Source: a virus. Taken from it: 64,000 bases of DNA. The DNA lies in IMG/VR virus record IMGVR_UViG_3300034159_000059; one strand, 5' to 3'. Within the stretch, counting starts at the first letter, position 1. Each line of letters starts with the position of its first letter. This document shows positions 2,542-43,940 of the stretch, in pieces. The notes beneath the pieces are model-generated. The model ran no database searches and was not told the origin of the DNA. It saw only the letters and a list, made by a program, of their open reading frames with translations. The position numbers and the translations under genes are program-made.

Positions 2542-3465
2542 ATGGGCGGCGGATCATTCAAGGCGGTGGACTACACCAGCTACGCCACGAAGAAGGGTTT
2601 CATCGACCACACTGGCGCAGTGACCAACAAAAGCGCTCACGAGATCTTCACCAACTCCCACATCGCGCAGGCACTCGATCCGAAGAAGGCGAAGATCCGC
2701 GAGTCGTGCGACTCGGCCGAGCATCCGGAGTCGAATGCCATCATCTTCGGCCTCGACAACACCGGCTCGATGGGCTTCATCGCCAAGGCCATGGCGCAGC
2801 AGTCGCTCCCCATCCTCATGAAGGAGATCTACGATCGCAAGCCCGTGCCCGACCCGCAGGTCATGTTCATGGGCCTCAACGACCAGTCCTGCGGCGGACA
2901 CTTCCAGGTCTCGCAGTTCGAATCCGACATCCGCATCGCCGAACAGCTCGGAGAGCTGTGGCTGGAGGGTGGTGGAGGAAACAACGACTGCGAGAGCTAC
3001 TCGATGGGGTGGTACTTCGCTGCCAACCACACCAAGATCGACTGTTGGGAGAAGAGGAAGCAGAAGGGCTTCCTCTTCACCATCGGCGACGAGAAGCCGG
3101 ACGCTCACCTCGATCCTACCGAGATCGAGAGGGTGATGGGCTACAAGCCCCAGGGCGGTACGAACGCCAAGAAGCTTCTGGAGGCAGCCCGGAAGAGGTA
3201 CCACGTCTTCCACATCGTGGTGATGGAGGGCAACTACGCCCGCTCGAACCCGAGTGAGACCGTGACGGCCTGGAACAGCCTCCTCGGGGAAGATCACGTC
3301 ATCCAGCTCCACGACCACACCAAACTCGCCGAAGTCGCCGTGTCTGCGATCCAGATCGCGGCCGGCATGGATCCTACCGACGTGGCCAAGTCCTGGGATG
3401 ACAAGGGCACGAAGGCCGCGGTCGTCAAGGCTCTGAAGACCATCAAGCGCGTCGTGGAACTCTGA
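2542..3465 (+). CDS. von Willebrand factor A (vWA) domain protein with C-terminal KRVVEL tag
   Basis: MIDAS motif IIFGLDNTGSM (DxSxS), 307 aa; ends ...ALKTIKRVVEL, a motif shared by five other proteins in the window. Confidence 0.75.
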   Translation: MGGGSFKAVDYTSYATKKGFIDHTGAVTNKSAHEIFTNSHIAQALDPKKAKIRESCDSAEHPESNAIIFGLDNTGSMGFIAKAMAQQSLPILMKEIYDRKPVPDPQVMFMGLNDQSCGGHFQVSQFESDIRIAEQLGELWLEGGGGNNDCESYSMGWYFAANHTKIDCWEKRKQKGFLFTIGDEKPDAHLDPTEIERVMGYKPQGGTNAKKLLEAARKRYHVFHIVVMEGNYARSNPSETVTAWNSLLGEDHVIQLHDHTKLAEVAVSAIQIAAGMDPTDVAKSWDDKGTKAAVVKALKTIKRVVEL

Positions 3466-3761
3466 TGTTGGAGAGTTCAGAGAACACGCTGGAGCAAGAT
3501 CGACGGCGGCTCGAATACGAGCTCCTTGAGCAGAAGGACATCGTCCGTCAGCTCTACGCCGTCATCGTGCGCGGGATGGTGGTGCTGAAGCAACTCATCC
3601 GCGTCTTCGCGCTTGCTGCCTGCTGGTTCTGGTTAGGCAAGCGCGAGACATACTTCCTCGCTGGCTTCATCACGGTCATCGCCCTGGTGCAGCTTGTCAT
3701 CGACAAGACGCGCCAGACGGTGAATCCGAAGCTGAAGCTCAGTGAGTGGGACATCCTATAG
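3465..3761 (+). CDS. small membrane protein (2 predicted TM helices)
   Basis: hydrophobic stretches VFALAACWFWLG and LAGFITVIALVQLVI; ATGA overlap with vWA gene stop. Confidence 0.5.
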   Translation: MLESSENTLEQDRRRLEYELLEQKDIVRQLYAVIVRGMVVLKQLIRVFALAACWFWLGKRETYFLAGFITVIALVQLVIDKTRQTVNPKLKLSEWDIL

Positions 3762-3769
3762 GAGAAAAC

Positions 3770-4960
3770 ATGAAACACGTGACGGCGGTCATCGGGGCCA
3801 ACTACGGTGACGAAGGCAAAGGCCTTGTCACCGACTACCTGTGCAGCGACGAGATGGACCTAGTAGTCCGCTTCAACGGCGGGGCGCAGGCAGGACACAC
3901 CGTAGTGACTCCAGAAGGCCGCCGGCACGTGTTTCATCACTTCAGCTCCGGCTCTTTCAGGGGGGCGGCGACCTTCCTGAGCAAGTTCTTCATCCTCAAC
4001 CCCATCGTCTTCGTGAGCGAGCTGCTCGAACTGGGGGAGTTATCTCTCAAGCCGAAGATCTTCGTAGACAAGGACTGTCTCGTAACAACCCCATGGGACA
4101 TGCTCCTAAATCAGGCCTTCGAGAGCTTGACGAAACGTTGCGGGAGCTGCGGGCTAGGCATCAACGAGACGATGGTCCGCAGTCGGCAAGAGCGGTACGC
4201 CTTGCGCTTCGAAGATCTCATGAAGGGACTTGATTGGATTCGGCAACGCCTCCGAGCCATTCGAGAAGAGTACATCCCTGTACGTGCCCATGACTTGGGG
4301 GTCGAGCTCTCCAAACAAGAGCACGCGCTGAGCCTCAGTGAAGGGATGATGGAGCACTTCCTCTACGATCTAGGAGTTCTGATCGGAAGAGTTAGACCAG
4401 CTACCTGGGACAGAACGTTCGTGAGGGCTCAAGAAGGGATCGTCTTCGAAGGCGCGCAGGGGCTTCGTTTGGACATGAGCCATTCGAACTATCCCTACGT
4501 CACCCATTCGAAGACCGGTCTTCCGAACATCGTGGCGCTCATGAAGCAGGCTGAGATCAAAGACGCCCTCTCTGTCTACTACGTGACCCGCACGTATATG
4601 ACTCGTCACGGGGCCGGACCACTTCCACACGAGATCTTCGTGCTGCCGTATCCCGAGGTGACGGACCCGACCAACGTCACCAACCCACACCAGGGCATGC
4701 TTCGGTATGGATGGCTCGACTACGATCACCTGCTTGAGGAGATCCGGACTGACCTCAGCCGAGCGAAAGAGATCAGAGCTCTCCCCAGCGTGGCCATCAC
4801 CTGCATGGATCAGATCGACAACGACCAGATCCAGCTCGTCCGTGGAGGCAGAAGATCTGGTATTCGTATCGAGAACTTGGTGAAGAAGTTCTACGACTCA
4901 GAGATCCTGAGCTGCGTGGCCTCTTACGGGCCAACAAGAGATCACTTTCAAGAGTTCTAA
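3770..4960 (+). CDS. adenylosuccinate synthetase family protein (PurA/PurZ-like)
   Basis: N-terminal GANYGDEGKGL P-loop, NGGAQAGHTVV, FEGAQGLRLDMSHSNYPYVTHS and TRHGAGPLPHE align to the PurA GDEGKGK / GGHNAGHT / FEGAQG / GAGPFP motifs; 396 aa. Confidence 0.8.
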   Translation: MKHVTAVIGANYGDEGKGLVTDYLCSDEMDLVVRFNGGAQAGHTVVTPEGRRHVFHHFSSGSFRGAATFLSKFFILNPIVFVSELLELGELSLKPKIFVDKDCLVTTPWDMLLNQAFESLTKRCGSCGLGINETMVRSRQERYALRFEDLMKGLDWIRQRLRAIREEYIPVRAHDLGVELSKQEHALSLSEGMMEHFLYDLGVLIGRVRPATWDRTFVRAQEGIVFEGAQGLRLDMSHSNYPYVTHSKTGLPNIVALMKQAEIKDALSVYYVTRTYMTRHGAGPLPHEIFVLPYPEVTDPTNVTNPHQGMLRYGWLDYDHLLEEIRTDLSRAKEIRALPSVAITCMDQIDNDQIQLVRGGRRSGIRIENLVKKFYDSEILSCVASYGPTRDHFQEF

Positions 4961-5085
4961 CTCGGAGCTCTTGAGCTGTGGTAGTAGAAGTCCCCCGCAT
5001 AGCTCAACTGGCAGAGCACTCGGCTACTAGCGTCGAATAGGTTCCGGGTTCGATCCCCGGTGCGGGGTTTTGCTAGAGGGAGAAC

Positions 5086-42227: not shown

Positions 42228-42646
42228 AGGCGTGGTGGAGAGAGGTGATCGAAGAGCCGGTCTACCACGCCTTCGTTCGGACCGCGCGCAACAGCCACAT
42301 GGGAATGAACTTCAGCTCCCTCTGTGGTCGCTTTTGGATGAGCACGGTGAAGCGTGGGAAACCGAACCCAGATCCACCCCCGAAGGAGAAGAGATGTCCG
42401 AAGTGCGACAAGCCGTCGGACTCGGACATCTGGTGTTACCCTCCTCACACAGATGCCAAGTGGCGCCTCACTGACAAAGCCACAAACAACTGGATGGGGA
42501 CCATAGAGACGAAAGAAGGGGACGAGGTCATGGATCTGACTGCCAAGGCGGCTGAAGACTTCGTCGATACCTTCCGTCTCGCCCAGCGAATCGTTCGAAG
42601 ACACAACGAAGAGCTAGGAATCCATCTCCAGGACTACGACCTCTGA
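42225..42646 (+). CDS. hypothetical protein with zinc ribbon
   Basis: CPKCDKPSDSDIWC; ATGA overlap with upstream stop. Confidence 0.5.
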
Positions 42647-42675
42647 GAAGAGGGCTGACAGACAAGGAGAAAGAC

Positions 42676-42909
42676 ATGGCAAGGAAAGAGCTGCTTCCCT
42701 TCAATAAGCCCTACATCGAGAGCAGAGCGACAGGCTACGGCTGGCGAGTGACGGTCAAGACTTCAGAAGAAGGGGTCGATCACTGGTCTCGGAGAGCCGA
42801 GTCCGTCGAGGAGTTGAAAAGGGTCCTCGTCCTGGCTGCCTATTTCCGGAGACAGTACGAGAACACTCTTCGGAAGATGCACGGACTTCCCGAGGTCTTG
42901 GAGCCATGA
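42676..42909 (+). CDS. hypothetical protein
   Basis: 77 aa, CAAGGAGAAAGAC SD. Confidence 0.45.
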   Translation: MARKELLPFNKPYIESRATGYGWRVTVKTSEEGVDHWSRRAESVEELKRVLVLAAYFRRQYENTLRKMHGLPEVLEP

Positions 42910-43940
42910 GTGAGGACGTCGTCCAGGTCGTCTTCAGCAAAGGGGTACTCTTCGACATCACCATCGGCAGGTGGTCTGCTCTTCATCAGATGAAGACCCA
43001 GGATCTGCTGTTGGAGAGCCTGGATCGGAAGGTGATCTACCCGGGTCACAAGAAGCTGCTGCCGGAAGAAGCGAGCTACCCGCTCATCAACCTGGAAGGG
43101 AAGATCCGCTCCTTCGTCCGCAAGAAGTCGATGCCCTTCCCCGTCTCCGGGGCGGTCTTCGTGAACTTCAAGGCCTTGCCGGACATGTTGAAAGGGTTGG
43201 CTGCCTTGCGAACCGAGTACGAGGCCAGGGCTCACGACCTCTATGAGAACTTCGATGCGATGCGAGACAAGCAGATCTTGGTCCTCGACGAAGAAGCTCG
43301 GAAGATCGCTGTCCAGAATGGTCTCTACAACAGCATGGAGGCGGTTGCTGATCGGGAGATCCTGAAGAACTGGCTCAAGGGACAGCACGCCAAACACATC
43401 TCCCTCTACCCGGATCGAGAGACGTTGCTCCAGAAGTACTACATCAACTGGCGCATGTTCCGAGTGAACCCTCTCGACGAGACTGCGGCAACGGTGTTGG
43501 AGAAGGAAAGCGCTGAGATGATCGCACAGCAACAGGAGCAGCTTCAGAACGACCTGAAACTGTGGATCAAGGAGAAGGCCAAGGAGATGCATCAGAAGCT
43601 GGGAGAGGCAGCTCACCAAGCCTCTCAGCTTCTCGAAGCGAACGGCAAGCTCAACCCGAAGAACCTGAAGCCCCTCTTCAATGCCTTCGAGGAGTTTGCG
43701 TCGGTCGACTTCGCCGGATCCTCGTTCTCTCAAGCGGTTGCGGACATCAAGAAGAAGTACGGCGTCACTAACGCGGAGGAGATCGATTTCAAGAGTGTCG
43801 CCGACTCCGTGAACAAGAACACCGCCGAGTTCAGTCAGCTCCTCACCACCATGAGTGGACTGGCGATCGAAGAAGTGGCAGCCCAGGCAGGAACAACGGC
43901 TCTTACCAACTCGTCCTTCAAACGAGTGGTGGAGCTCTGA
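42906..43940 (+). CDS. coiled-coil protein with C-terminal KRVVEL tag
   Basis: 344 aa; ends ...TALTNSSFKRVVEL. Confidence 0.6.
   Translation: MSEDVVQVVFSKGVLFDITIGRWSALHQMKTQDLLLESLDRKVIYPGHKKLLPEEASYPLINLEGKIRSFVRKKSMPFPVSGAVFVNFKALPDMLKGLAALRTEYEARAHDLYENFDAMRDKQILVLDEEARKIAVQNGLYNSMEAVADREILKNWLKGQHAKHISLYPDRETLLQKYYINWRMFRVNPLDETAATVLEKESAEMIAQQQEQLQNDLKLWIKEKAKEMHQKLGEAAHQASQLLEANGKLNPKNLKPLFNAFEEFASVDFAGSSFSQAVADIKKKYGVTNAEEIDFKSVADSVNKNTAEFSQLLTTMSGLAIEEVAAQAGTTALTNSSFKRVVEL

Follow-up and report, generated by a model that had tools for sequence, protein, structure and literature searches.

Six proteins encoded in a 64,000-nucleotide stretch of a jumbo phage genome (IMG/VR virus record IMGVR_UViG_3300034159_000059; this whole stretch is termed the window) end in the same short peptide, K-R-[IV]-V-E-[LV], and are otherwise unrelated. 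A variant of this tail also ends a Cdc48-like AAA+ ATPase encoded in their midst. Judged from sequence patterns, the tail is probably a docking peptide, which would tether varied partner proteins and the ATPase to one receptor of a Cdc48-like/Ycf46 system. The window covers 64 kb of a contig that is at least 209 kb long, and about 18 kb of flanking sequence was also seen.

The shared C-terminal tail

A six-frame translation of the window contains the K-R-[IV]-V-E-[LV] motif exactly six times. All copies are on the + strand and each abuts a stop codon (gene ends at 3465, 20025, 29897, 30574, 37093 and 43940), as a previous examination of the letters alone, the sequence-only reading, had described. 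A degenerate DNA pattern for the peptide plus stop gives six matches, compared with 0.00 expected from 100 dinucleotide-preserving shuffles. The six copies vary synonymously in their codons (AAG/AAA, CGC/CGG/CGA/AGG, GTG/GTC, GAA/GAG) and the stop codons are TGA or TAG, which argues that the peptide is the object of selection; a DNA-level repeat or regulatory element was rejected on the same ground.

A search for extra tails, proposed earlier, had a mixed outcome. The AAA+ ATPase at 32936-34555 ends in ...KKGTRVVES, a near-match and seventh tail that the sequence-only reading had overlooked; no additional tails are present in the flanks of the window in the same phage (∼10 kb to the left and ∼8 kb to the right). 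Two proteins do have VKPGTK just before the tail, as noted earlier. In two carriers the tail module is closely preceded by a second, degenerate copy of itself: the 'vWA' protein (3400-3465; DKGTKAAVVKAL) and protein X (37000-37093; VKPGTKFLAT). These degenerate copies resemble KPGTKRIVEL of the SLOG protein and KKGTRVVES of the ATPase, and the sequences hint at a duplication of the tail unit.

The tailed proteins

No domain is common to the six carriers in Pfam, NCBIfam and PHROG-family comparisons, in keeping with the earlier view that they are non-homologous, and an NCBIfam scan of the tailed proteins returned nothing beyond weak SLOG matches. Domain labels were checked with Pfam and NCBIfam at a threshold of E≤0.01, in a scan that took in only some of the window open reading frames. 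Of the labels assigned from the letters alone, YpsA/SLOG, MVP and two AAA proteins stood; vWA was not confirmed and is given here in quotation marks, and SWIM corresponds to a CxCx(n)CxH motif only, with no Pfam match.

Conservation of the tail is seen in the DUF3150 protein (344 amino acids, 42906-43940, +; domain confirmed), which ends in KRVVEL at 43920-43937. The tail is kept in 25 of 25 orthologues of 52-100% identity, as [KRQ]R[IV]VE[LIVA]. Residues F338, R340, V342 and E343 are invariant in the alignment and the linker before them is variable. In the AlphaFold model, residues 331-344 have a pLDDT (the per-residue confidence) below 50, and the tail is thus predicted to be disordered or exposed in this model as well as in that of the ATPase described below. 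The same DUF3150 protein occurs on a 209-kb contig. A Foldseek search of the model against the PDB gave no significant match (best E 0.29) and therefore no functional clue; solved structures searched by sequence for DUF1257 and DUF3150 also gave no match.

Protein X (661 amino acids, 35108-37093, +) carries the CxCx(n)CxH SWIM-like motif near its C-terminus and the tail KRIVEL at 37073-37090. Its positional orthologues vary in length (128-549 amino acids) and end in KRVVEI, KRIVEI, GRVITL, GRVIEF, NRVVEY or GRTIILD. A second CxCx(n)CxH SWIM-like protein, at 51459-52049 (-; CGCKNWQYRRSVDGGSCKH), has no tail and is kept in the relatives L003 and L004 (related loci are denoted by L numbers; ∼20 kb was seen per locus). 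The YpsA/SLOG protein (208 amino acids, 29271-29897, +; domain confirmed) ends in KRIVEL at 29877-29894, and its orthologues in TKRIVEI (L003), GRIIDIED (L007/L008) and RRHVEIGDDEPE (L096). The Cys/His-rich protein (224 amino acids, 29900-30574, +) has KRIVEV at 30554-30571; at this position L003 has two different small proteins instead, with the ends KRVVEI and KRVVEA. Between two tRNA-Met genes is a 69-amino-acid open reading frame (19816-20025, +) with KRIVEL at 20005-20022 and a positive codon score. A homologue search found only itself, so that this frame, for which codon usage and the tail are the evidence, is the least secure member of the set.

The 'vWA' protein (307 amino acids, 2542-3465, +) ends in KRVVEL at 3445-3462. 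Its only match is to phrog_2971, a family whose function is unknown; Pfam and NCBIfam gave none at the above threshold. An orthologue on the contig of a relative (P0146) ends in KRIVEV. A KRxVE tail is found in one of 150 listed cluster representatives of the 'vWA' family (1537 matches), and this carrier is on the contig of a close relative. The cultured phages RHph_TM30, phiKT1024 and Bxz1 have no such tail on their 'vWA' protein, and were not found among the matches listed for the ATPase search. Comparison of these sequences supports a grafting of the tail onto the 'vWA' family in this phage clade. Together with the purifying selection on the tail and its predicted disorder, this clade restriction supports the earlier proposal of a short grafted peptide that gives otherwise unrelated proteins a shared address or docking signal.

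In the window the 'vWA' gene is followed by one for a PurA-like adenylosuccinate synthetase (2542-4960 for the pair, +). The pair is kept in RHph_TM30 (a Rhizobium phage), phiKT1024 (a Vibrio phage) and the mycobacteriophage Bxz1, where it occurs with a Ser/Thr kinase. Bacterial contigs have the pair as well, there with a preceding gene whose product contains a J-domain HPD motif (a weak Pfam DnaJ match in one of two). The J-domain protein, 'vWA' protein and PurA-like protein constitute an uncharacterised three-gene cassette.

The ATPase and its gene cassette in phages

The ATPase (539 amino acids, 32936-34555, +; tail-like TRVVES at 34535-34552) is a tandem AAA+ protein of the Ycf46 type; the JGI product name of its orthologues is 'SpoVK/Ycf46/Vps4'. 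Its AlphaFold model has a pLDDT of 93, and the last ∼10 residues one of 58. Foldseek aligns the model over ∼570 columns with the D1-D2 region of p97/Cdc48/AFG2 (E ∼1e-23), and p97/Cdc48/VAT/AFG2 are the closest unfoldases in both sequence and fold. As modelled, the protein is Cdc48-like and of unfoldase type, without an N domain. The fold match spans both halves, yet there is a single Pfam AAA match, so that the first ATPase domain appears to be degenerate.

The sequence R-x-[VIL]-[EDQ]-[AV], more broadly written R-x-[IVLM]-[EDQ]-[AVILMF], forms the exact end of 86 of 120 ATPase orthologues, and a looser form fits 106 of the 120. The orthologues display a conserved RTRPAN segment, then a variable linker and then the motif. 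The ATPase and the six window proteins share a core with R at position -4, hydrophobic and acidic residues at -2 and -1, respectively, and a final residue that is small or hydrophobic. An ATPase end of the form R-x-hydrophobic-[E/D/Q]-hydrophobic/small is a feature defined in this analysis and not taken from the literature.

Two small tailless proteins are encoded close to the ATPase, and both are candidate receptors of the tail. One is the DUF1257 (Ycf35-like) protein at 34628-35098 (+; Pfam E 1.9e-5), whose gene lies beside the AAA gene in phages as well as in cellular genomes. The other is a DUF2997 protein of 66 amino acids at 37106-37306 (+; Pfam E 1.8e-12), which is also conserved in the cassette. 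With (t) denoting a tailed protein, the gene order is AAA(t)-DUF1257-X(t)-DUF2997-(...)-DUF3150(t). Jumbo phages whose DUF3150 is as little as 38% identical keep this order, with the same positional genes tailed, and it is found in phage contigs of ∼150-200 kb from several sources. In L007/L008 the genes AAA-DUF1257-X(t)-DUF2997-DUF3150(t) are contiguous and in L094 and L096 nearly so; L003, L004 and L095 have other genes between DUF2997 and DUF3150.

The tails drift by lineage, e.g., GR[VI]I[DT][IL], YGRVIEF/FSRVIED and FNRVVEY/FARFLEV. Relatives have tails on further, different proteins: two small proteins after SLOG, a small open reading frame ending in NRVVEV, and a glutathionylspermidine (GSP)-synthase-like protein ending in GRVVQI. 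The order AAA-X-DUF1257-DUF2997 is seen in smaller cultured phages of Rhizobium, Rhodobacter, Aeromonas and Agrobacterium, where X ends in R-K-I-T-I, R-K-L-K-L, R-R-L-R-L-S or R-R-A-V-K-L. The ATPase of mycobacteriophage Corndog ends in VRVLDL, and its neighbours have no Pfam match.

A subfamily of the ATPase (IMG/VR loci L119, L121, L123, L126, L136, L154, L166, L173 and L175) displays acidic-Leu ends, EDDL or EEEL. Five genes downstream of an ATPase of this type is a protein of ∼1100 amino acids that ends in D-[ED]-L-F-D. The acidic-Leu ends may represent a second, independent tail code within the same ATPase family.

Within 34628-37306 (+), the DUF1257, X and DUF2997 genes are in one frame, separated by single TAG codons and three to four sense codons. 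Amber read-through there would fuse DUF1257-X-DUF2997 and bury the KRIVEL tail of X. A tRNA at 4993-5068 (+) has the anticodon CTA of an amber suppressor; ARAGORN calls it Pyl, and its loop position 33 is an A, which is unusual. TAG is the stop codon in 38 of 92 called genes, two tailed genes included, despite the tRNA with the CTA anticodon. The frames of the three genes differ in L003, and the shared frame in the window is possibly a coincidence.

Cellular relatives and co-variation

Full-length homologues of the ATPase, with 36-42% identity over residues 11-523, are found in cyanobacteria, Myxococcota, Melainabacteria, Firmicutes, Actinobacteria and others. These are the Ycf46 family, and DUF1257 is Ycf35; by sequence, the window genes belong to the Ycf46-like AAA+/DUF1257/DUF2997 gene set. 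The cellular ATPases end in YQR[ML]EF (cyanobacteria), GERKLEL (Myxococcota) or GGR[AT]LD[LVIF] (others), and 45 of 78 homologues carry the C-terminal motif. Presence of the tail is associated with DUF1257/DUF2997 in the same locus: 41 of the 78 loci have both, four the tail only, eight a DUF gene only and 25 neither (Fisher p = 1.3e-9, with phylogeny ignored).

Neighbours of the cellular AAA gene include an unrelated membrane-anchored helix-hairpin-helix family, with a transmembrane (TM) segment and the HHH_3 domain, whose members end in EGR[ILV][IVL]D[FWLIV]. Only 14 of 3451 open reading frames of at least 80 amino acids in the cellular loci carry the motif, and 11 of these 14 are the TM plus HHH_3 neighbours. 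Whether position -1 is E or D co-varies in ATPases and their partners, with 41 concordant and five discordant pairs over several lineages of phage and cellular loci.

A probable docking peptide of the ATPase system

The analysis shows the motif and how it is conserved and co-varies, the neighbouring genes, the fold of the ATPase and the predicted disorder of the tail; from these we infer binding through the tail, a likely receptor and the fate of the partners. The tail would be a short linear motif for docking, placed at the tip of a flexible linker; its core is R-x-hydrophobic-[E/D]-hydrophobic-COOH, which in this clade takes the form K-R-[IV]-V-E-[LIVA]. The proposed system consists of the Cdc48-like tandem AAA+ ATPase of the Ycf46 family plus the small proteins DUF1257 (Ycf35) and DUF2997. 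The ATPase C-terminus and the varied partners encoded nearby would enter the same receptor pocket; binding to one co-evolving site is the proposed reason why the ATPase and its interchangeable partners share a tail. DUF1257 and/or DUF2997 are the most likely providers of this pocket, given that the tail of the cellular ATPase associates with them, and the ATPase ring is the main alternative. A receptor of DUF1257/DUF2997 type would have to be multivalent, in order to link the partners to the ATPase. Unrelated proteins could in this manner be tethered to one unfolding or remodelling machine, either as cofactors or as clients. The jumbo phage lineage may have widened the partner list to at least six window proteins, namely the 'vWA' and SLOG proteins, two of zinc-finger type, DUF3150 and the 69-amino-acid open reading frame, with a close relative adding others that include the GSP-synthetase-like protein. 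The sequence-only reading had listed, as an alternative to its main hypothesis, a recognition tag for one of the two AAA+ ATPases, and the evidence points in that direction: the motif is the C-terminal signature of the ATPase family and is common to its phage and cellular neighbours.

A more specific form of this proposal can be put forward tentatively. DUF1257/DUF2997 may be a multivalent receptor that binds the same C-terminal peptides of the Ycf46 ATPase and of interchangeable clients, and the whole may represent a widespread, previously unrecognised AAA+ hub.

Several observations weigh against a docking peptide with one system-encoded receptor. The last residue of the window ATPase is Ser and not hydrophobic. 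Local hidden Markov models (HMMs) miss DUF1257/DUF2997 beside many IMG/VR phage AAA genes that end in R-x-L-D-L (4/22); either the HMMs are too weak or there is another receptor, e.g., the ATPase itself. In the wider HMM survey of IMG/VR AAA loci, presence of DUF1257/DUF2997 had no clean correlation with tail class, the HMMs probably being insensitive. When the similarity of AAA tails to those of their neighbours was put to a permutation test, with 24 AAA clusters (50% identity), the result was only modest (p ∼0.03). Gene calls at the related loci are those of a simple codon-score open reading frame caller, and neither the contingency counts (41/4/8/25) nor the co-variation counts (41 versus 5) are phylogenetically independent. 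In addition, members of the 'vWA' family elsewhere end in GLVRF or KVIEF, in bacterial contexts with no AAA gene within the stretch seen, and there may be other receptors for some of these hydrophobic tails.

Among other explanations, the tail may be a degron or substrate tag that the pore of the Cdc48-like ATPase engages directly, without a separate receptor, to unfold or remove the proteins, for example in a timed turnover of early proteins. The kinship of the ATPase with the unfoldases p97/Cdc48/VAT/AFG2, the terminal and predicted disordered nature of the tails, and the location of all tailed genes in a + strand block with tRNA, ligase and nucleotide-metabolism genes are consistent with this. 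Nevertheless, it is unlikely: the motif is on nearly every ATPase orthologue itself, which is odd for a degron, the tail of the cellular ATPase tracks DUF1257/DUF2997, which suggests a receptor outside the pore, and no protease partner was seen in the window.

The tail might also bind a ubiquitous cellular protein, such as the ClpX N-domain or another chaperone or protease, and deliver phage proteins to the host machine or block it. The ClpX N-domain binds a C-terminal LRVVK peptide of the adaptor SspB, and the R-V-V of the tail is reminiscent of this peptide in its basic and hydrophobic terminal pattern. The phage AAA model comprises D1-D2 only and offers no separate N-terminal binding domain; some 'vWA'-family tails occur in the bacterial J-domain-protein cassettes with no AAA gene nearby. 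A receptor in the host is improbable, however, as the tail co-varies by lineage with the local ATPase tail and tracks DUF1257/DUF2997, a pattern that a co-evolving, system-encoded receptor fits better than a fixed host protein.

Tails and the major vault protein

The main hypothesis of the sequence-only reading was that of a vault-cargo tag, with the tail docking the six proteins in or onto an MVP particle in the manner of the INT domain. The window does encode a genuine, nearly full-length MVP (37809-40364, +; MVP_shoulder E 1.6e-27, plus Vault_3) between two tailed genes, and the anatomy of the tail, terminal and preceded by a flexible linker, is that of a cargo-loading peptide. Phage MVPs are already known from the literature, and MVP is frequent in large phages (at least 103 IMG/VR contigs).

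The distribution of the tail largely refutes the vault hypothesis, and a role as vault cargo tag is very unlikely. Relatives that retain tailed orthologues (L003, L004, L007/L008, L094-L096) have neither MVP nor RtcB at the locus, and the contig of one relative has no MVP in 41 of 55.7 kb, yet encodes about nine tailed proteins. Conversely, the best 80 of the at least 103 MVP phage loci (1.55 Mb) contain no open reading frame with the tail, even in a broad version, and a de novo tail search in the same 80 loci found the loose motif at background level (19 of 2201 genes). These 80 loci are also without DUF1257, DUF2997 and DUF3150, and the IMG/VR contigs of the top 80 MVP and top 80 AAA matches do not overlap. 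The same motif is, in addition, found in cyanobacterial, myxobacterial and other cellular Ycf46 loci. No homology to the INT domain was detected; the shared element is six residues long, with no common domain. A recurrent tail near MVP of the huge phages LR756500 and LR756501 (24-32% G + C) was also looked for, and none was found.

RtcB (40480-41661, +; domain confirmed) follows MVP, and both lie between DUF2997 and DUF3150. The relatives keep the tailed cassette without MVP and RtcB, and the MVP loci are without tail or cassette; MVP-RtcB thus looks, from the gene orders, like an unrelated insertion into an older cassette. The stretch at 37400-42900 resembles an inserted RNA-repair or vault module. 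The contig of a relative bears a TROVE/Ro60-vWA protein instead (L179, 3164-4846).

A signal for packaging into the virion or capsid, comparable to encapsulin cargo peptides or the T4 capsid-targeting sequence and serving to load proteins into the procapsid for injection, shares that terminal, post-linker anatomy and would suit proteins with an early post-injection role, but is scarcely credible, being contradicted by the cellular distribution of the motif (it is kept on chromosomal Ycf46 ATPases and neighbours of cyanobacteria, Myxococcota, Actinobacteria and others, which have no capsid) and by the placement of the tailed genes among replication and nucleotide-metabolism genes, not structural genes. 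A PDZ-type receptor was rejected: the tail resembles a class II PDZ ligand, and no PDZ family was found among the scanned proteins, in a scan that was not exhaustive.

Comparison with known docking systems

Flexible C-terminal tails are docking sites in the p97/Cdc48 class. The HbYX/GQYL motifs of the proteasome activators PAN, Rpt, archaeal Cdc48, Mpa and Bpa are like the phage tail in that they are at the extreme C-terminus, flexible, and carried by an AAA+ unfoldase as well as by unrelated proteins, all of which dock into the same pockets of one partner (here proposed only). HbYX is hydrophobic-Tyr-X, whereas the tail is R-x-hydrophobic-[E/D]-hydrophobic and lacks the penultimate Tyr. The constant companions of the tail are DUF1257 and DUF2997; no 20S proteasome or proteasome-like family was found among the scanned window proteins (some open reading frames being unscanned). 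The p97/Cdc48 tail with its PUB/PUL cofactors is similar in having a tandem D1-D2, a disordered C-terminal tail and a conserved terminal motif. It differs in that p97 ends in ...DDLYG and this end is on the ATPase alone, whereas here the partners bear the tail of the ATPase, which has no N domain and a degenerate D1; no PUB/PUL domain was detected.

The XB peptide of SspB (LRVVK) also follows a flexible linker, tethers adaptor bodies to an AAA+ unfoldase and has the R-V-V flavour; it binds by beta-strand addition. However, its receptor is the zinc-binding ClpX N-domain, absent from the D1-D2 model of the phage ATPase, and ClpX itself does not carry the peptide. As the defining motifs or receptors are absent, the tail system falls outside the HbYX/GQYL, p97-PUB/PUL and SspB-ClpX families. 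Encapsulin cargo-loading peptides, like the tail, are common short terminal peptides on unrelated proteins, placed after a linker. Their receptor is an HK97-fold shell encoded beside the cargo, with a GSL-type motif, whereas the tail differs in motif and also ends an ATPase; its presence in cellular Ycf46 loci speaks against membership of this family. With the INT domain of VPARP and its docking to MVP, the tail has in common only the notion of a C-terminal module by which proteins are sent to a large particle, and the fact that the window contains an MVP gene. INT folds into a domain of ∼160 residues, unlike a hexapeptide, and the tail is distributed independently of MVP.

Genome context

The jumbo phage window encodes a DNA ligase, a dCMP deaminase, HNH endonucleases and similar proteins. 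There are 43 tRNA genes, all on the + strand between 4993 and 25284, interspersed with HNH endonuclease genes. A small gene at ∼57192-57413 (-; L183 14675-14896) has a precomputed Pfam match to Acb2_Tad1_hairpin, a family of anti-CBASS/Thoeris sponge proteins, and a similar match is present in L004.

Significance

The Ycf46, Ycf35 and DUF2997 genes are kept in cyanobacteria, algal plastids, many bacteria and hundreds of phages. The literature searched on them offered no mechanistic description, only annotations and one link to a stress operon, and a description of the C-terminal motif was not found in that on DUF1257/DUF2997/DUF3150, Ycf46/Ycf35 and phage Cdc48-like unfoldases. C-terminal docking peptides organise major AAA+ machines, i.e., the proteasome, p97 and ClpX-SspB. 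A tail that co-varies between an ATPase and its varied neighbours provides a concrete, testable handle on the Ycf46 system, and a tail rule would serve to find the clients of this system in any genome. The tempting link between the tail and phage vault proteins is removed as wrong; what is suggested instead is an unfoldase, run by some jumbo phages themselves, that recruits clients.

If DUF1257/DUF2997 do form a hub, the partners would be membrane-anchored helix-hairpin-helix DNA-binding proteins in bacteria, and DUF3150, SLOG, 'vWA', zinc-finger and GSP-synthetase-like proteins in jumbo phages. In that case jumbo phages would have assembled a protein-remodelling hub for their own use, and the long-unexplained ycf46 and ycf35 of plastids and cyanobacteria would be two halves of one tail-and-receptor machine.

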